Shown here in pieces: positions 10,631 through 19,456 of a stretch of DNA of 64,000 bases (within the stretch, counting starts at the first letter, position 1; each line of letters begins with the position of its first letter). The notes under the pieces were generated by a model. The model saw only the letters and a list, made by a program, of their open reading frames with translations. It was not told the DNA's origin and searched no databases. The DNA comes from Escherichia coli. Lineage in GTDB: Bacteria; Pseudomonadota; Gammaproteobacteria; Enterobacterales; Enterobacteriaceae. A program made the position numbers and the translations under genes. The stretch lies in NCBI RefSeq assembly GCF_044324875.1, contig NZ_CP172185.1. One strand, written 5' to 3'.

Positions 10631-10640
10631 TAAAAGGTGT

Positions 10641-10671
10641 GTTACAGGGCAGAAATTTCCTGCCCTGTAAC
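10641..10671 (+). terminator. Perfect 12-bp-stem hairpin immediately after fruA stop
   Basis: gttacagggcag-aaatttc-ctgccctgtaac. Confidence 0.5.
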
Positions 10672-10787
10672 ATTTGATGCGCGCAAAGAGAATGACCGGT
10701 TTGTGAATGTAATTTTATGAATTTAAATGGTTTTATCTTTTAGTAGAAACCTGAAACCTTCATCAAACACTAAGGTTATTTCCTCAA

Positions 10788-10814
10788 GGGCAGATTAATT
10801 TCTGCCCTTTTTTA
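10788..10814 (+). terminator. Rho-independent terminator-like hairpin plus T-tract
   Basis: gggcagattaatttctgccc followed by ttttttatt. Confidence 0.6.
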
Positions 10815-11053
10815 TTGTTCCTGTTCTGTGCATCCCGTCACAAATTCCCCGTTTTTATAATTCAGGCATTTAATCGCGTTTTGTGAGCCTGCTCAAATCT
10901 GCCCATTTTGCCTCTCTGGCGGTAATTTACTTTACGTAAAACATGCATACTATGAGCACATGTTTAAATATGAACACATGTTTAAACCGTCTTTGCAGTA
11001 TCTATATTCTTGTGGATTGACAGGGTGGGTAATTTTTTACCAGAGGACGTGCT

Positions 11054-11995
11054 ATGCGCGAAAAGGATTATGTCGTAATTATAGGTTCGGCGAATATTGA
11101 TATCGCCGGATATTCACATGAATCATTAAATTATGCGGATTCAAATCCAGGTAAAATAAAATTTACGCCTGGTGGAGTCGGGCGAAATATTGCACAAAAC
11201 CTGGCGTTGCTGGGTAACAAAGCCTGGCTACTGAGCGCAGTAGGCAGTGATTTTTATGGTCAATCGCTGCTAACGCAAACCAATCAATCTGGCGTTTATG
11301 TCGATAAATGCCTGATTGTGCCGGGAGAAAATACGTCGAGCTATTTATCATTACTCGATAATACCGGTGAAATGCTGGTTGCTATAAATGACATGAATAT
11401 TAGCAACGCTATTACAGCTGAATATCTCGCACAGCACCGTGAATTTATTCAAAGGGCAAAGGTCATTGTCGCGGACTGTAATATCAGTGAAGAGACACTG
11501 GCATGGATTCTGGATAATGCCGCCAATGTACCTGTATTTGTCGATCCGGTTTCGGCATGGAAATGTGTCAAAGTGCGTGACCGTCTAAATCAGATCCACA
11601 CCCTGAAGCCAAACCGCCTTGAAGCGGAAACCTTGAGTGGGATTGCTTTGTCAGGGCGTGAAGATGTGGCAAAAGTTGCTGCCTGGTTCCATCAACATGG
11701 CCTGAACCGACTGGTAATGAGCATGGGCGGCGACGGCGTTTATTACAGTGATATCAGCGGTGAAAGTGGTTGGTCTGCGCCGATCAAAACCAATGTCATT
11801 AATGTTACCGGAGCGGGCGATGCCATGATGGCGGGACTTGCTTCGTGTTGGGTAGACGGAATGCCGTTTGCCGAATCTGTTCGTTTCGCACAGGGATGTT
11901 CGTCAATGGCGCTCTCCTGTGAATACACCAATAACCCCGATTTATCGATTGCCAACGTTATATCGTTAGTGGAGAACGCAGAATGTCTGAATTAA
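11054..11995 (+). CDS. psuK: Pseudouridine kinase (pfkB family)
   Basis: 313 aa MREKDYVVIIGSANIDIAG... Confidence 0.88.
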   Translation: MREKDYVVIIGSANIDIAGYSHESLNYADSNPGKIKFTPGGVGRNIAQNLALLGNKAWLLSAVGSDFYGQSLLTQTNQSGVYVDKCLIVPGENTSSYLSLLDNTGEMLVAINDMNISNAITAEYLAQHREFIQRAKVIVADCNISEETLAWILDNAANVPVFVDPVSAWKCVKVRDRLNQIHTLKPNRLEAETLSGIALSGREDVAKVAAWFHQHGLNRLVMSMGGDGVYYSDISGESGWSAPIKTNVINVTGAGDAMMAGLASCWVDGMPFAESVRFAQGCSSMALSCEYTNNPDLSIANVISLVENAECLN

Positions 11996-12921
11996 AAATT
12001 TCCCCTGAATTATTACAAATTTCCCCGGAAGTGCAGGACGCTTTAAAAAACAAAAAACCGGTTGTGGCGCTGGAATCGACCATTATTTCTCACGGGATGC
12101 CGTTCCCACAAAATGCCCAGACCGCAATTGAAGTTGAAGAAACTATTCGTAAACAGGGCGCTGTACCTGCCACTATCGCCATTATTGGCGGCGTGATGAA
12201 AGTGGGTTTAAGCAAAGAAGAAATTGAATTGCTGGGTCGTGAAGGGCATAACGTGACCAAAGTTAGTCGTCGCGATTTACCTTTTGTTGTTGCCGCCGGA
12301 AAAAATGGCGCAACTACCGTTGCTTCAACGATGATTATTGCGGCGCTTGCCGGAATTAAAGTATTTGCCACTGGGGGAATTGGTGGTGTGCATCGCGGGG
12401 CGGAACATACCTTCGATATTTCTGCCGATTTGCAAGAACTGGCGCACACCAATGTCACCGTCGTTTGTGCCGGGGCGAAATCTATTCTCGATTTAGGCTT
12501 AACTACCGAATATTTAGAAACTTTCGGTGTACCGCTAATTGGCTATCAGACCAAAGCGCTGCCTGCGTTTTTCTGCCGCACCAGCCCGTTTGAAGTCAGT
12601 ATTCGCCTTGATAGTGCCACGGAAATCGCTCGTGCAATGGCGGTGAAATGGCAAAGCGGTCTGAACGGTGGCCTGGTGGTGGCGAATCCGATCCCGGAAC
12701 AGTTTGCGATGCCGGAGGAATCTATCAATGCAGCCATAGATCAAGCCGTCGCCGAAGCCGAAGAGCAGGGCGTTATTGGTAAAGAAAGTACGCCATTCCT
12801 GCTGGCGCGCGTTGCTGAGCTGACCGGCGGTGACAGCCTGAAATCCAACATCCAGCTGGTGTTCAACAACGCCATTCTGGCGAGCGAAATTGCCAAAGAA
12901 TATCAGCGTCTCGCGGGTTAA
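11983..12921 (+). CDS. psuG: Pseudouridine-5'-phosphate glycosidase
   Basis: 312 aa MSELKISPELLQISPEVQDALKNKKPVVALESTIISHGMP...; overlaps psuK by 13 nt. Confidence 0.88.
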   Translation: MSELKISPELLQISPEVQDALKNKKPVVALESTIISHGMPFPQNAQTAIEVEETIRKQGAVPATIAIIGGVMKVGLSKEEIELLGREGHNVTKVSRRDLPFVVAAGKNGATTVASTMIIAALAGIKVFATGGIGGVHRGAEHTFDISADLQELAHTNVTVVCAGAKSILDLGLTTEYLETFGVPLIGYQTKALPAFFCRTSPFEVSIRLDSATEIARAMAVKWQSGLNGGLVVANPIPEQFAMPEESINAAIDQAVAEAEEQGVIGKESTPFLLARVAELTGGDSLKSNIQLVFNNAILASEIAKEYQRLAG

Positions 12922-13014
12922 TTTCTGACGGGCAGAAAGCCGTCGCCCGTACTCATCAAGCATACCAAAACCTGGCGCTGACGCCGGGTTTACTGGCATG
13001 AAGGGAAAATCATT

Positions 13015-14265
13015 ATGGATATAATGAGAAGTGTTGTGGGGATGGTGGTGTTACTGGCAATAGCATTTCTGTTGTCAGTGAATAAAAAGGGCATCAGTTT
13101 GCGCACGGTTGGAGCCGCACTGCTGCTGCAAATCGCTATTGGTGGCATCATGCTCTACTTCCCACCGGGAAAATGGGCAGTAGAACAGGCGGCATTAGGC
13201 GTTCATAAAGTGATGTCTTACAGTGATGCCGGTAGCGCCTTTATTTTTGGTTCATTGGTCGGGCCGAAAATGGATGTCCTGTTTGATGGCGCGGGCTTTA
13301 TCTTCGCCTTTCGCGTACTCCCGGCGATTATCTTCGTCACTGCGCTCATCAGCCTGCTGTACTACATTGGCGTGATGGGACTGCTGATTCGCATTCTTGG
13401 CAGCATTTTCCAGAAAGCTCTCAACATCAGCAAAATCGAATCTTTTGTTGCGGTTACCACTATTTTCCTCGGGCAAAATGAGATCCCGGCGATCGTTAAA
13501 CCGTTTATCGATCGCATGAATCGCAACGAGTTGTTTACCGCAATTTGTAGCGGGATGGCGTCCATTGCTGGTTCGATGATGATTGGTTATGCCGGAATGG
13601 GCGTACCAATTGACTACCTGTTAGCGGCATCGCTGATGGCGATCCCTGGCGGGATTTTGTTTGCACGTATTCTTAGCCCGGCAACCGAGCCTTCGCAGGT
13701 CACATTTGAAAATCTGTCGTTCAGCGAAACACCGCCAAAAAGCTTTATCGAAGCAGCGGCGAGCGGTGCGATGACCGGGTTGAAAATCGCCGCTGGTGTG
13801 GCGACGGTGGTAATGGCGTTTGTCGCAATTATTGCGCTGATTAATGGCATTATCGGCGGAATTGGCGGCTGGTTTGGTTTTACCAATGCTTCTCTGGAAA
13901 GTATTTTTGGCTATGTGCTGGCACCGCTGGCGTGGATCATGGGTGTGGACTGGAGTGATGCCAATCTTGCGGGTAGCCTGATTGGGCAGAAACTGGCGAT
14001 TAACGAATTCGTCGCTTACCTGAGTTTCTCCCCATACCTGCAAACGGGCGGCACGCTGGAAGTGAAAACCATTGCGATTATCTCCTTTGCGCTTTGTGGT
14101 TTTGCTAACTTTGGTTCTATCGGTGTTGTCGTTGGCGCATTTTCGGCTATTTCGCCTAAACGCGCACCGGAAATCGCCCTGCTTGGTTTACGGGCGCTGG
14201 CAGCAGCAACGCTTTCCAACCTGATGAGCGCGACCATTGCCGGGTTCTTTATTGGTTTAGCTTGA
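13015..14265 (+). CDS. psuT: NupC-family nucleoside transporter
   Basis: 416 aa multi-TM; close paralog of nupX in this window. Confidence 0.88.
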   Translation: MDIMRSVVGMVVLLAIAFLLSVNKKGISLRTVGAALLLQIAIGGIMLYFPPGKWAVEQAALGVHKVMSYSDAGSAFIFGSLVGPKMDVLFDGAGFIFAFRVLPAIIFVTALISLLYYIGVMGLLIRILGSIFQKALNISKIESFVAVTTIFLGQNEIPAIVKPFIDRMNRNELFTAICSGMASIAGSMMIGYAGMGVPIDYLLAASLMAIPGGILFARILSPATEPSQVTFENLSFSETPPKSFIEAAASGAMTGLKIAAGVATVVMAFVAIIALINGIIGGIGGWFGFTNASLESIFGYVLAPLAWIMGVDWSDANLAGSLIGQKLAINEFVAYLSFSPYLQTGGTLEVKTIAIISFALCGFANFGSIGVVVGAFSAISPKRAPEIALLGLRALAAATLSNLMSATIAGFFIGLA

Positions 14266-14272
14266 GTTTCAT

Positions 14273-14311
14273 TGCCGGATGTACGCGCTTATTTAGCGTC
14301 ACATCCGGCAA
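14273..14311. repeat. REP-like palindromic element between convergent psuT and yeiL
   Basis: gccggatgt...acatccggca palindrome. Confidence 0.5.
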
Positions 14312-14332
14312 TCGCTCTATTGCAAATAATTT

Positions 14333-14992
14333 TTACTGCATCATCCCTGAGAATTTATTTTCCGGGTCCATCTCCAGTGCCAGTCCTGACAACTGCTTTC
14401 TGTTTTTAATTAGATACCCTTTCTTGCTTTTAATTAATAAACCGTCGTGAATGAATTGCGCTAGAACATATAAAAGATGTCGATAAGAAACGCCTAAATA
14501 CTCTGCCGCTTGCGTATGCTTTTCGTGATAAAGATCACCTTCCTGCGAGAGTAATATAAAAGCTGCCAGGCGATTCACTAACGGAAATGATTGATTCTGA
14601 GTTAAAGAAACAATATTGCGATAATTTTTATGGCTTAAAGTAACGCAGAGTTTTCGTAAAAATAGCGTGTCGTTTAATAACAGCGGACGGTAATGTTTCA
14701 TAGGGAGCGCAAGGCACCAACACTCTTCAATAGCCTGTACCGCACGCGGTTCATGGTCTTTGTCGATTAACTCAATCTCGCCAATAAAACAGGGAGCGGC
14801 AAAGAAATCGATCAGCGACACGCGACCATTAGCTAGCGTGGCGTAAAGCCTGGCGCGGCCTCGCGTCAGGTAAAACAGCCAGGACGGCTGTTGCCCTTCC
14901 TGCACAATGTAGTCACGCGCTAAAAAATGAAACAGCCGCGTATCGGCTGAAACATCCGTTGAAAAGCAATCCTTAAACGCGGATTCACTCAT
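14333..14992 (-). CDS. yeiL: Crp/Fnr-family transcriptional regulator
   Basis: Track ORF 232 aa; start at MSESAFKD gives 219 aa with cNMP-binding-like domain and C-terminal HTH. Confidence 0.8.
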
Positions 14993-15160
14993 CAATTGCT
15001 GCTTAAGGTCATTATTGTGGATTTCTTTCACGATGTTTATCCGCTATGAGATTTCTCATATTTAGCATACTTACGCTGTTGTTAAGATTCAATCATCGGC
15101 CCGGTCGAATTTTCTTTGCTGTAGAAAAAATAACGCAACTGGAAACAGAGGAAATAAACA

Positions 15161-16102
15161 ATGGAAAAGAGAAAAATTATTCTGGATTGTGATCCGGGTC
15201 ATGATGATGCTATTGCCATAATGATGGCAGCGAAACATCCGGCAATAGATTTATTAGGCATCACCATTGTGGCGGGTAATCAGACGCTTGATAAAACATT
15301 AATTAATGGCCTGAATGTTTGCCAGAAACTGGAGATTAATGTTCCGGTTTATGCGGGGATGCCACAGCCCATTATGCGTCAACAAATCGTTGCCGACAAT
15401 ATTCATGGTGAAACAGGACTGGATGGCCCGGTATTCGAGCCGCTGACCCGCCAGGCAGAAAGTACCCATGCGGTGAAATACATCATTGATACCCTGATGG
15501 CAAGCGATGGCGATATCACTCTGGTGCCGGTTGGCCCACTTTCAAACATCGCGGTGGCAATGCGTATGCAACCCGCGATCCTGCCGAAAATCCGTGAAAT
15601 TGTGCTGATGGGCGGCGCTTACGGTACTGGCAACTTTACGCCATCCGCCGAGTTCAACATCTTTGCTGACCCGGAAGCCGCACGCGTGGTGTTCACCTCC
15701 GGCGTTCCGTTGGTGATGATGGGCCTCGATCTCACCAACCAGACCGTTTGCACCCCGGACGTGATTGCCCGGATGGAAAGGGCAGGCGGCCCTGCCGGAG
15801 AGCTGTTCAGCGACATCATGAACTTCACTCTCAAAACCCAGTTCGAAAACTATGGCCTGGCTGGCGGCCCGGTGCACGACGCCACCTGCATCGGTTATCT
15901 GATCAACCCTGATGGCATTAAAACCCAGGATATGTACGTCGAAGTGGATGTTAACAGTGGCCCTTGCTATGGGCGTACCGTCTGCGACGAGCTGGGCGTT
16001 CTTGGCAAGCCAGCCAATACCAAAGTCGGCATCACTATTGATACCGACTGGTTCTGGGGCTTAGTCGAAGAGTGCGTGCGCGGCTACATCAAAACCCATT
16101 AA
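15161..16102 (+). CDS. rihB: Pyrimidine-specific ribonucleoside hydrolase
   Basis: 313 aa, N-terminal DCDPGHDDA nucleoside hydrolase motif. Confidence 0.9.
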
Positions 16103-16201
16103 GTGTTGATAACAAGCCGGGCCGGTATCGCAAGATGCAGGCCCGGCTATTTCTGATGGGCAGAAAGCCGTCGCCCAAAATGACATGAAGAGATAATAAC
16201 T

Positions 16202-17452
16202 ATGGATGTCATGAGAAGTGTTCTGGGAATGGTTGTATTGCTGGCAATTGCGTTTTTGCTGTCAGTAAACAAGAAGAAGATCAGCCTGCGTACCGTTGGC
16301 GCGGCGTTAGTGTTACAGGTCGTGATTGGCGGCATTATGCTTTGGTTACCACCAGGGCGTTGGGTCGCTGAAAAAGTCGCTTTTGGAGTCCATAAAGTGA
16401 TGGCCTACAGCGACGCGGGTAGCGCATTTATCTTTGGTTCTCTGGTCGGACCGAAAATGGATACCTTATTTGATGGCGCAGGATTTATCTTTGGTTTCAG
16501 GGTATTACCGGCAATTATCTTCGTTACAGCACTGGTGAGTATTCTCTACTACATCGGTGTGATGGGGATCTTAATTCGCATTCTCGGCGGTATATTCCAG
16601 AAAGCATTGAATATCAGCAAGATTGAGTCATTCGTCGCGGTCACTACCATTTTCCTCGGGCAAAACGAAATTCCGGCAATCGTCAAACCCTTTATCGATC
16701 GTCTGAATCGCAATGAATTATTTACGGCTATTTGTAGTGGCATGGCCTCGATTGCTGGTTCGACAATGATTGGTTACGCCGCACTGGGCGTGCCTGTGGA
16801 ATATCTGCTAGCGGCATCGTTAATGGCGATCCCCGGCGGGATCTTGTTTGCCCGCCTGTTAAGCCCGGCTACCGAATCTTCGCAGGTTTCCTTTAATAAC
16901 CTCTCTTTCACCGAAACACCGCCAAAAAGCATTATTGAAGCCGCCGCTACAGGGGCTATGACCGGACTGAAAATCGCCGCAGGTGTGGCGACAGTGGTGA
17001 TGGCATTTGTTGCAATAATTGCGTTGATTAACGGTATTATCGGCGGCGTTGGCGGCTGGTTTGGTTTTGAACATGCCTCGCTGGAGTCCATTTTAGGTTA
17101 CCTGCTGGCCCCGCTGGCGTGGGTGATGGGGGTTGACTGGAGTGATGCGAATCTTGCCGGGAGTTTGATTGGACAGAAACTGGCGATTAATGAATTTGTC
17201 GCTTACCTCAATTTCTCACCTTATCTGCAAACAGCTGGCACTCTGGATGCTAAAACCGTGGCGATTATTTCCTTCGCGTTGTGCGGTTTCGCTAACTTTG
17301 GTTCTATCGGGGTGGTGGTGGGGGCGTTTTCTGCGGTTGCGCCACACCGTGCACCGGAAATCGCCCAGCTTGGTTTACGCGCGCTGGCGGCGGCGACACT
17401 TTCTAACCTGATGAGTGCCACCATTGCAGGATTCTTTATTGGCTTAGCGTAG
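16202..17452 (+). CDS. nupX: NupC-family nucleoside permease
   Basis: 416 aa, highly similar to psuT (13015-14265). Confidence 0.88.
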   Translation: MDVMRSVLGMVVLLAIAFLLSVNKKKISLRTVGAALVLQVVIGGIMLWLPPGRWVAEKVAFGVHKVMAYSDAGSAFIFGSLVGPKMDTLFDGAGFIFGFRVLPAIIFVTALVSILYYIGVMGILIRILGGIFQKALNISKIESFVAVTTIFLGQNEIPAIVKPFIDRLNRNELFTAICSGMASIAGSTMIGYAALGVPVEYLLAASLMAIPGGILFARLLSPATESSQVSFNNLSFTETPPKSIIEAAATGAMTGLKIAAGVATVVMAFVAIIALINGIIGGVGGWFGFEHASLESILGYLLAPLAWVMGVDWSDANLAGSLIGQKLAINEFVAYLNFSPYLQTAGTLDAKTVAIISFALCGFANFGSIGVVVGAFSAVAPHRAPEIAQLGLRALAAATLSNLMSATIAGFFIGLA

Positions 17453-17507
17453 TGCGCGAGTTATGAGCCGGATAAGACGCGGTCAAGCGTCGAATCCGGC
17501 AACATTG

Positions 17508-18596
17508 TTACACCATCGGCACTAATGAAAGCGCGTTATCGGCAGACAGGGTAGGGTTGTTTAAGCTGCCGCTGGCGCGTGAAATTGCCGCGCAGGCCAT
17601 CGCAAAACGGGCGCTGTCACGGAAATTGTTTCCCTCCAGAAAGCTATATACCAGGCCCGCCATAAAACCATCGTCAGCACCAAAACTGTCTACTGTCGTA
17701 TGCGCTGGCGCTGTCAGCAAAAATTGCTCTCCATCCTTTTCGCTGCAATAAACTGACTCATCGGGCAAATAAACAAACAGTTGCTGAACGCCTTGCTGAT
17801 GCAACGCATTCACTGCGGCATTACGGTCAGCATCGCTGGTGATCGCCTGTCCCCATAAAATTTCCAGCTCCGGTAAAGTGGGTTTCAGGGTGTGAATATG
17901 CGCCAGCCAGTGTTTGATTTTGCCCGCTTTGAATTCTGAAACGGTATCGACAAACACCGGGATTTCATCAGCGAGGGTAAAGACCCACTCCAGCGCCTCG
18001 GCTGTCAGGTTGCAATCAGCCAGTACCACGCCCGCATGACGAAGTAAATCGCGCGACCCGTTCAGTAGTTGCGGTGTCAACTGATCCAGCAGATGGGTAT
18101 CGTTAATCGCCAGCACGATTTGATCGTCTCGATCGGCAATTGCCAGATACGTCGATGTGCTTTGGCCATGTAAACGAACGCAGCCGGAGACATTCACGCC
18201 GGCGCGGCGCGTTTCTTCCAGGAGCATTTCGCCATAAAAGTCATCGCCAATCACTGAAAGCAAATGGACGTCGCGGCCTAACAGCGCCAGATTGTGGGCG
18301 ATATTGCGTCCAACGCCGCCTGCCGAGCAATGAATGGTACCGGGATGAGAAGCCGCTTGCGGGTAACGGATATCCGCCATCCCGCGAATATCCATATTGA
18401 TTGTCCCCACCACTACGCAGTATTCCTGCTCGGTGAGAATGTAACCTTTGCCTTTAATCCGACCTTTGCGCATTAAATCCATAATATGCGCCGCAACGCG
18501 CGAACGGCTGATTTGCAGCATATCAGCAATTTCGTTCTGCTGAATCAGCGGGTTACGCCGTAAAATTGCAAGGATCTCCTTCTCCCGGTTGTTCAT
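17508..18596 (-). CDS. yeiI: Putative sugar/nucleoside kinase with N-terminal HTH (pfkB family)
   Basis: 362 aa; kinase domain paralogous to psuK. Confidence 0.82.
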   Translation of the reverse strand: MNNREKEILAILRRNPLIQQNEIADMLQISRSRVAAHIMDLMRKGRIKGKGYILTEQEYCVVVGTINMDIRGMADIRYPQAASHPGTIHCSAGGVGRNIAHNLALLGRDVHLLSVIGDDFYGEMLLEETRRAGVNVSGCVRLHGQSTSTYLAIADRDDQIVLAINDTHLLDQLTPQLLNGSRDLLRHAGVVLADCNLTAEALEWVFTLADEIPVFVDTVSEFKAGKIKHWLAHIHTLKPTLPELEILWGQAITSDADRNAAVNALHQQGVQQLFVYLPDESVYCSEKDGEQFLLTAPAHTTVDSFGADDGFMAGLVYSFLEGNNFRDSARFAMACAAISRASGSLNNPTLSADNALSLVPMV

Positions 18597-18598
18597 CT

Positions 18599-19456
18599 TC
18601 AGGCTACCGCTTTTTCAGTTTGTTGCGCTTTCAGCCAGGCGATCTCTTCTGCCCAGATATCCGGGTTGATGGTTTCAAGGATCAGCGGAATGCCGTCGAA
18701 ACGGTCGTCCTGCATGATCCAGCGGAACGCATCATGACCGATATTGCCTTCACCGAGGCTATGATGGCGGTCAACGCGGCTGCCAAAGGTGCTTTTCGCA
18801 TCGTTAAGGTGCATCCCGCGCAGATACTTAAAGCCGACAATACGGGCAAAATCCGCGAACGTTTTCTCGCATTCGGCTGGAGTACGCAAATCATACCCGG
18901 CAGCAAAAGCATGGCAGGTATCAATGCAGACGCCGACGCGGGATTTATCTTCAACGCCGTCGATAATCGCCGCGAGATGTTCGAATTTAAACCCTAAGTT
19001 ACTGCCCTGACCGGCGGTGTTTTCAATCACCGCTGTCACACCATGAGTTTTATCCAGCGCAATGTTGATGGATTCGGCAATACGCGCAAGGCAATCCTCT
19101 TCTGAAATCTGCATCAGATGGCTGCCAGGGTGGAAGTTGAGCAAAGAAAGCCCCAGCTGTTCGCAACGCTGCATTTCATCTATAAACGCATCGCGCGATT
19201 TTTCCAGAGCTTCAGCGACCGGATGTCCGAGGTTAATCAGATAACTGTCGTGGGGAAGAATTTGCGCCGATGTGTAGTGATATTTTTCACAGGCGGCTTT
19301 GAATTCATCGATGGTTTGCGTCGTGAGCGGTGCGGCACGCCACTGACGTTGGTTTTTGGTGAACAAGGCAAACGCGGTTGCGTCGATTTCGGCGGCGCGA
19401 ATTGCGGCATTTGCCAGACCGCCAGCAGCACTAACGTGCGCTCCAATGTATTTCAT
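18599..19456 (-). CDS. nfo: Endonuclease IV (AP endonuclease)
   Basis: 285 aa [39 protein letters not shown]... Confidence 0.93.

Follow-up and report, generated by a model that had tools for sequence, protein, structure and literature searches.

A pseudouridine unit and a yeiL-rihB-nupX cassette at one Escherichia coli locus, with kinase and transporter paralogs of probably different age

Introduction

The window analyzed here, a stretch of 64,000 nucleotides from Escherichia coli (assembly GCF_044324875.1, contig NZ_CP172185.1), contains a chromosomal locus for nucleoside catabolism in which the genes follow the order fruA, psuK-psuG-psuT, yeiL, rihB-nupX, yeiI and nfo, as established by an open reading frame (ORF) map of the interval 9–21 kb and by megablast. 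The kinases PsuK and YeiI and the transporters PsuT and NupX form two pairs of paralogs, and the original prediction for this DNA had read psuK-psuG-psuT and yeiI-rihB-nupX as two adjacent modules, each of a kinase, a C-N hydrolase and a transporter, which would derive from an ancient tandem duplication and have specialized later. The paralogy at the level of the genes is real and specific, but it was already known, and the segmental duplication is wrong in its definition of the modules, in its third gene pair and in its assumption of a single event. We consider it probable that the locus combines two functional units, the pseudouridine unit psuK-psuG-psuT with the convergent yeiI and the cassette yeiL-rihB-nupX, and that the two paralog pairs stem from two separate duplications of different age. 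In addition, the sequence of YeiI suggests that this protein regulates psu genes and is not another kinase.

Genes and Features at the Locus

The locus was found by megablast in 5,425 of 5,426 complete E. coli genomes, and RefSeq annotations at the matched locus name psuK, psuG, psuT, rihB, nupX and yeiI. The gene psuK (11054–11995, plus strand) encodes a pseudouridine kinase of the PfkB fold with canonical NxxE and GAGD motifs and no helix-turn-helix (HTH), which scores 713.5 bits on the NCBIfam equivalog NF007355 (cut-off 540). It is followed by psuG (11983–12921, plus strand), encoding pseudouridine-5'-phosphate glycosidase of the Indigoidine_A fold (Pfam PF04227, 1e-132), by the psuT leader (12922–13014, plus strand), in which hairpin 1, hairpin 2 and the Shine-Dalgarno (SD) sequence GAAGGGA succeed one another, and by psuT itself (13015–14265, plus strand), the psu-linked copy ('T' clade) of a CNT-family transporter. 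The spacer between psuT and yeiL, S' (14266–14332), contains a REP-like (repetitive extragenic palindromic) hairpin, GCCGGATGT...ACATCCGGC, and does not correspond to the ancestral 3' flank of psuT.

The gene yeiL (14333–15031, minus strand), with which the cassette begins, encodes a regulator of the CRP/FNR family (Pfam cNMP_binding and HTH_Crp_2; NF007707), and rihB (15161–16102, plus strand) a ribosylpyrimidine nucleosidase of the IU_nuc_hydro family (PF01156, 3e-98; NF007417, 727 bits). A terminator-like GC-rich hairpin (16115–16148, plus strand) lies 3' of rihB and directly 5' of the nupX leader (16149–16201, plus strand), which contains hairpin 1 only, followed by the SD sequence and ATG; the region after rihB including this leader (16100–16207) folds with z = -3.98. 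The CNT-family transporter NupX, the cassette-linked copy ('X' group), is encoded at 16202–17452 on the plus strand. Spacer S (17453–17507), which is also REP-like, separates nupX from yeiI (17508–18596, minus strand), an old paralog of psuK whose product joins an N-terminal winged HTH (wHTH) to a PfkB domain. The REP-like palindromes (GCCGGAT...ATCCGGC) found 3' of both transporter genes, at 14273–14311 and 17467–17500, are dispersed repeats and no evidence of duplication; a weak match to the REP-derived naRNA4 (17466–17514, E 0.78) overlaps the second of them.

Comparison of the Two Halves

As had been noticed from the sequence, PsuT and NupX are nearly identical, agreeing at 367 of 416 residues (88%) in a gap-free alignment, and the N-termini quoted as examples are exact. 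The alignment of YeiI with PsuK over the kinase domain was likewise borne out (40% identity over 307 amino acids, E 2e-78), with the quoted GGVGRNIA motifs recurring exactly. In two of the three gene pairs the similarity goes beyond generic family motifs and marks specific paralogs: PsuK and YeiI each reach ~262 bits on the NCBIfam model of the other compared with 134 and 103 bits on that of ribokinase, and PsuK aligns with FruK, encoded in the same window, over only 80 amino acids.

The middle genes do not fit this picture. PsuG belongs to Indigoidine_A and RihB to IU_nuc_hydro, a BLASTP comparison of both gave an E value of 4.3, and PsuG breaks a C-C bond, not a C-N bond. The proposed modules are not colinear either, since psuK, psuG and psuT all lie on the plus strand and the second half reads yeiL (minus), rihB (plus), nupX (plus) and yeiI (minus). 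A BLASTN comparison between the halves found homology only between 12994–14261 and 16181–17448, together with a 28-nt box at 12921–12948 and 16149–16176. The pairwise DNA alignment suggested by the original prediction thus recovers the transporter genes and their leader and no homology elsewhere, so that only a transporter gene with ~55–95 nt of leader is duplicated at the DNA level. The claim that even spurious antisense ORFs are duplicated applies to five matched same-frame pairs with 62–84% amino acid identity, which are a trivial consequence of the gap-free 79% DNA identity; the two longest antisense ORFs (140 and 105 amino acids) are not counterparts.

If a kinase-hydrolase-transporter block had once been duplicated in tandem long ago, and if one kinase gene had then been inverted, one hydrolase replaced by a non-homologous enzyme, yeiL inserted and the copies specialized, this would explain why two of three gene pairs are specific paralogs within 7.5 kb. 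Such an account is confronted, however, with unrelated PsuG and RihB, with the confinement of DNA homology to transporter and leader, with identities of 88% in one pair and 40% in the other, with differing relative ages of the pairs, and with the distribution of yeiI in other genomes described below. We regard this scenario as extremely improbable.

Synteny Across Species

To define the units, one genome per species was scanned with an alignment of PsuT and NupX, and the 59 loci obtained were annotated by tblastn using the E. coli proteins. The commonest layout is fruA-psuK-psuG-psuT-yeiI-nfo with yeiI on the minus strand, observed in Citrobacter, Enterobacter, Klebsiella, Kosakonia, Buttiauxella, Kluyvera, Pseudocitrobacter and E. 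albertii. In the species other than E. coli, yeiI is present in all 33 evaluable psuK-psuG-psuT loci, and in each of the 33 it comes after psuT, in most cases directly, or after nupX where the cassette is present. The gene yeiL accompanies rihB-nupX in 21 of 21 cassette-bearing loci of other genomes, and none of the 13 loci with the cassette but without psuKGT contains a kinase gene. The units seen in other genomes are hence psuK-psuG-psuT-yeiI and a kinase-free yeiL-rihB-nupX, and it follows from this synteny that yeiI, which accompanies psuKGT but is never found with only the cassette, is part of the pseudouridine unit and that the predicted yeiI-rihB-nupX module does not exist.

The cassette is patchily distributed and its position varies among genomes. 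Its place is between psuT and yeiI in E. coli and its close relatives as well as in Citrobacter amalonaticus S646, Entomohabitans and Phytobacter diazotrophicus, and it stands alone between fruA and nfo, with neither psuKGT nor yeiI, in Salmonella enterica arizonae, Citrobacter sp. 18056, Buttiauxella sp. B2 and Pluralibacter. At unrelated sites it occurs in Superficieibacter, Klebsiella spallanzanii, Ewingella, Hafnia, Izhakiella, Pantoea and Enterobacter sp. 10-1. K. spallanzanii carries both units on one contig, the cassette and psuK-psuG-psuT-yeiI lying ~22 kb apart with fruA between them, which represents a third layout for these units. In Affinibrenneria (Pectobacteriaceae), psuK-psuG-CNT and yeiI lie in convergent orientation at an unrelated position of the chromosome.

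The Transporter Pair

PsuT and NupX both contain the domains Nucleos_tra2_N, Gate and Nucleos_tra2_C and match TIGR00804, in each case above the curated cut-offs. NupX was reported to transport uridine and cytidine weakly, uptake of uridine, cytidine and xanthosine by PsuT was not detected, and a published tree of proteobacterial CNT proteins groups NupX with PsuT (PMC11241209). A substrate of PsuT would be assigned from the operon context only. The two genes are 79% identical in DNA sequence and 53% identical at third codon positions, and the synonymous (dS) and non-synonymous (dN) divergences of 1.31 and 0.078 give a dN/dS of ~0.06, as is characteristic of an old pair under purifying selection and not of a recent copy. 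Their synonymous sites are saturated at the level of orthologs from different genera (dS 1.1–1.7), which implies that the transporter copies of E. coli have been independent for at least that long; psuT of E. coli and of E. albertii differ by a dS of 0.79.

The transporter phylogeny was rooted with psu-linked CNT proteins from Yersinia and Serratia (73–76% identity), Pasteurella (53%) and Affinibrenneria (80%). They replaced the outgroups of a first tree, which were only 32–43% identical and rooted it unreliably, so that this tree was dropped. PsuT and NupX group together, apart from the Yersinia and Serratia proteins with 100% and apart from the Affinibrenneria protein with 92% bootstrap support. 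Within this clade, the PsuT-context sequences are monophyletic in 53–75% of bootstrap replicates and the NupX-context sequences make up a paraphyletic grade.

This topology would place the split of the transporters after the divergence of Affinibrenneria and Enterobacteriaceae, unless gene conversion has kept an older pair alike, in which case the duplication of the transporter could be as old as that of the kinase. Such concerted evolution is known from relatives: C. amalonaticus S646 and P. diazotrophicus show clear conversion tracts, and the intragenomic psuT/nupX dS drops to 0.47 and 0.73, respectively, compared with 1.3 in E. coli. Third-position identity in these two genomes rises to 0.80–0.95 over a background of ~0.5 and reaches up to 0.95 over the 3' half. 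For E. coli, however, no recent psuT/nupX conversion or chimeric breakpoint was found, apart from slightly raised values in the 3' half (z ~+1); the identity of its two copies equals the background between PsuT and NupX of different genera (z within ~1), and dS is saturated. Moreover, psuT cannot convert cassette copies that lie far away or in another family, and these still fall inside the clade of PsuT and NupX, and conversion would in any case leave yeiI outside the cassette. Taken together, we judge concerted evolution to be a quite unlikely account of the pair.

The Transporter Leader

The DNA homology of psuT and nupX extends 5' of both start codons, where the 28-nt box is identical at 27 of 28 positions. 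Hairpin 1 (plus strand; 12928–12950 in psuT, 16157–16177 in nupX) has the conserved loop GCnGT, and its core across genera reads NN-GGGC-A-G-nnnGCnGT-C-GCCC-N'N'. Its stem positions pair in 92% of cells of the alignment, compared with 33–51% for slid partners. Of the two outer pairs, one alternates between C-G and U-A and the other between A-U and G-C, and the observed covariation was reached in none of 500 shuffles. Two other pairings within the E. coli box, the dyad TTTCTG-N5-CAGAAA and the stem GACGG/CCGTC, which corresponds to the minimum free energy (MFE) fold, are not conserved in other genera, and both were rejected for the GGGC/GCCC stem, the flanks of which covary. A covariance model of hairpin 1 matches only psuT and nupX leaders across 673 kb of related loci and returned none in the loci of Yersinia, Serratia, Pasteurella, Shewanella and Affinibrenneria, and Rfam gave no match at E <1 in 12900–13020 or 16100–16210. 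Hairpin 2 (12968–12991, plus strand), AAACCTGGCG-CTGA-CGCCGGGTTT, precedes the SD sequence of psuT and is seen in the MFE fold; it occurs in psuT leaders and in the nupX leader of K. spallanzanii and is deleted from that of E. coli, which shows a gap of 41 nt relative to psuT. The leader hairpin fits a transporter gene with its leader as the segment that would have been duplicated.

The spacer between fruA and psuK contains two near-perfect hairpins with GGGCAG/CTGCCC arms (10640–10672 and 10786–10809), the second with a T-tail. Their arm sequence, GGGCAGAAA, is enriched in the window, with 8 exact copies, or 36 including those with one mismatch, compared with ~17 expected. No connection was found between these hairpins with GGGCAGAAA arms and the leader hairpin.

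Junctions of the Cassette

The psuT-yeiI spacer of E. albertii has its homolog in the spacer after nupX of E. coli (17453–17507) and not in the one after psuT. The same swap of spacers was observed for C. amalonaticus S646 in comparison with Enterobacter and Kluyvera and for P. diazotrophicus in comparison with Kosakonia, giving three lineages in total, and psuT of E. albertii is T-like up to its last codons. According to these alignments, the cassette of E. coli is located exactly between the coding end of psuT and the ancestral terminator of psuT. The extra DNA comprises a new 3' flank, yeiL, rihB, the leader and the nupX coding sequence and is bounded by homologous ends of transporter genes, which is the footprint expected of homologous recombination, be it integration or the reverse deletion.

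This footprint would also be left if the E. coli layout were ancestral. psuT and its leader would then have been duplicated in tandem at this site, yeiL-rihB captured between the copies, the cassette later spread horizontally, and the cassette-free relatives would have lost it by recombination between psuT and nupX. The closest relationship of PsuT and NupX and their common leader hairpin, absent from the outgroups, speak for an origin in situ, as do the single insertion point common to four lineages and the 79% identical direct repeats, which ease deletion; deletions within the locus do occur in E. coli strains. Yet the losses would have to be many and independent (Citrobacter, Enterobacter, Klebsiella, Kosakonia, Buttiauxella, Kluyvera and E. 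albertii), the trees do not place NupX-type genes inside PsuT but, if anything, show the reverse, and in Pantoea, Hafnia, Ewingella and Superficieibacter the cassette resides at loci unrelated to this one. Both parts of this account, the duplication in place and the ancestral layout with its later losses, are therefore considered unlikely, although they come closer than the other alternatives.

The Kinase Pair and a Possible Regulator

YeiI contains the PfkB fold (PF00294, 3e-67) and, at residues 1–48, an HTH_24 domain (PF13412) scoring 41.2 bits over a cut-off of 21.9. It reaches 261 bits on the PsuK model NF007355, which is below the cut-off of 540, and 810 bits on its own model NF007416 (cut-off 561). 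Its best solved relative is PsuK, and no structure spans the HTH. A published tree clusters YeiI, there listed as uncharacterised, with PsuK and the plant kinase AtPUKI (PMC9061257), and a recent review names the label 'pseudouridine kinase' for YeiI as an erroneous machine prediction (PMC12506659).

Proteins combining an HTH with PfkB in the manner of YeiI are widespread in Gammaproteobacteria. In Yersinia, Serratia, Pasteurella testudinis and Shewanella the psu operon begins with a gene for such a fusion. The overlap of this gene with psuG measures 7 nt in Shewanella and 4 nt in the other three, in which psuG is then followed by a gene for a CNT transporter. The kinase domains of these fusions are 58–59% identical to E. 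coli PsuK and 44–48% to YeiI, with PsuK and YeiI sharing 38.5%, and the HTH is the best-conserved part (65–70% identity between YeiI and the operon HTH-kinases). In a neighbour-joining tree of the kinase domain, PsuK and the HTH-kinases cluster without YeiI with 86% bootstrap support, and a sister grouping of PsuK and YeiI received 0%. PsuK of Affinibrenneria joins PsuK (98%) and YeiI of Affinibrenneria joins YeiI (100%), which suggests that the split of the kinases predates the divergence of Affinibrenneria and Enterobacteriaceae. Since Affinibrenneria has PsuK-type and YeiI-type genes and a single CNT that falls outside PsuT and NupX, the kinase split appears older than the transporter split. 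The phylogeny of the transporter and pfkB paralogs, proposed as a check on the single tandem duplication, therefore gives the two pairs different ages, one lying before and the other after that divergence.

The canonical kinase motifs are intact in PsuK and in all HTH-kinases of the alignment. E. coli YeiI has TLPE for NxxE, GADD for GAGD and LPDES for MGGDG, and the motifs are also degenerate in Klebsiella and Affinibrenneria; the variants of the YeiI lineage are TLPE or SxxE, GADD or GADE, and LPDES. Nine of the ten residues listed as contacting pseudouridine in EcPsuK (PMC9247573) are retained in YeiI, namely N14, D16, G41, V42, N45, Y97, N143, V166 and D256, and M114 is replaced by T. On the basis of these sequence features, YeiI is probably not a second pseudouridine kinase but a transcription factor that senses nucleosides and controls psu genes; the ligand recognized by its degenerate PfkB domain may be pseudouridine or some related nucleoside. 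Our search of the available literature found no described psu regulator.

A 24-bp palindrome, CACATGTTY-N6-RAACATGTG, is conserved upstream of psuK in Enterobacteriaceae (30+ species compared by eye) and is a candidate psu operator, through which YeiI may exert its control. The E. coli version, GAGCACATGTTTAAATATGAACACATGTTTAAAC (10958–10991, plus strand), lies in the psuK promoter region, its second half is a direct repeat, and the 64-kb window contains a single AACAYRTGTT. A TTTACTTT box is also conserved upstream of psuK in Enterobacteriaceae, and in Shewanella CAAACATATGTTTG is found ~35 nt upstream of the HTH-psuK gene. The proposals that YeiI is a pseudokinase-type transcription factor of psu and, separately, that the leader hairpin is an undescribed cis-regulatory RNA of the transporter clade are advanced together as a tentative suggestion, which we rate somewhat below even.

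Proposed Origin of the Two Units

In the scenario that we favor, with two units and two separate duplications, the ancestor of the pseudouridine unit would have been a [wHTH-PsuK]-psuG(-CNT) operon such as persists in Yersinia, Serratia, Pasteurella and Shewanella. The fused HTH-kinase gene would have been duplicated before Enterobacteriaceae and Affinibrenneria separated; the operon copy, PsuK, would then have lost the HTH and kept the catalytic motifs, and the other copy, YeiI, would have kept the HTH and the nucleoside-contact residues and lost the NxxE, GAGD and Gly-rich motifs. The second unit, yeiL-rihB-nupX, would serve the uptake and hydrolysis of pyrimidine nucleosides, and nupX with its leader of ~55–95 nt would be a later duplicate from the psuT lineage. 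We infer that the cassette entered the locus, or left it in relatives, by homologous recombination between transporter genes, and that psuT and nupX of E. coli have since diverged independently under purifying selection.

Several points weigh against this scenario. The outermost place of YeiI could be due to long-branch attraction through accelerated evolution, and past gene conversion may make PsuT and NupX seem younger than they are. The pattern of the flanks fits insertion and deletion equally, and the modest support for PsuT together with the paraphyly of NupX leaves the direction of the transporter duplication undecided. The trees are neighbour-joining trees on Kimura distances, not maximum likelihood trees, and the scan for loci used two peptide patterns (W[VI]MGVDW and FLLSVNKK), which biased the sampling towards close relatives.

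The paralogy by itself changes nothing, as both pairs are annotated and already stand together in published trees. What is gained is the placement of yeiI, listed as an uncharacterised sugar kinase, in the pseudouridine unit, along with caution against annotating it as a pseudouridine kinase. If the regulatory role holds, YeiI would be a clear case of a subfunctionalised enzyme-regulator fusion. The locus furthermore shows neighbouring paralogs of 79% identity mediating gain or loss of a cassette as well as gene conversion in enterobacteria.

Variation Within Escherichia

The locus is unusually diverse within E. coli. For the interval 10631–18700 of the window, 16 of 5,431 records are >=99% identical and 1,166 fall at 80–90%. 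In E. coli A1.S1.18, PsuK and YeiI are 88% and 85% identical to the proteins of the window, the flanking Nfo is 100% identical, and nupX is reduced to a remnant of 66 bp. In E. coli CUPS04 a deletion that starts at the 3' end of psuK extends as far as the 3' end of yeiI, and psuK and psuT were not detected in Escherichia sp. MOD1-EC7003.

Comparison With Known Systems

Compared with the annotated locus of E. coli K-12, psuK(yeiC)-psuG(yeiN)-psuT(yeiM), yeiL, rihB(yeiK)-nupX(yeiJ) and yeiI, the genes, their order and their products are the same and there is no structural difference. The transporters share their three Pfam domains with the solved proteins CNTNW (5L26) and vcCNT (3TIJ), to which NupX aligns end to end (E 1e-130 and 2e-125, respectively); the E. 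coli proteins themselves are without a solved structure. With the [wHTH-PfkB]-psuG-CNT operons, the E. coli pseudouridine unit has in common psuG, the kind of transporter (73–76% identity to Yersinia and Serratia) and the wHTH of YeiI. However, the fusions of Yersinia, Serratia, Pasteurella and Shewanella unite the HTH and canonical kinase motifs in one gene, whereas in E. coli YeiI has the HTH with degenerate motifs and PsuK has intact motifs without the HTH.

A further parallel is offered by the ROK-family repressors NagC and Mlc, in which an HTH is joined to a kinase-like ligand-binding domain without catalytic features. These repressors have the ROK/ASKHA fold, in contrast to the PfkB/ribokinase fold of YeiI, for which DNA binding and ligand are predictions. 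As a working analogy, YeiI may be likened to NagC and Mlc in its combination of an HTH with a catalytically degraded kinase-like domain.

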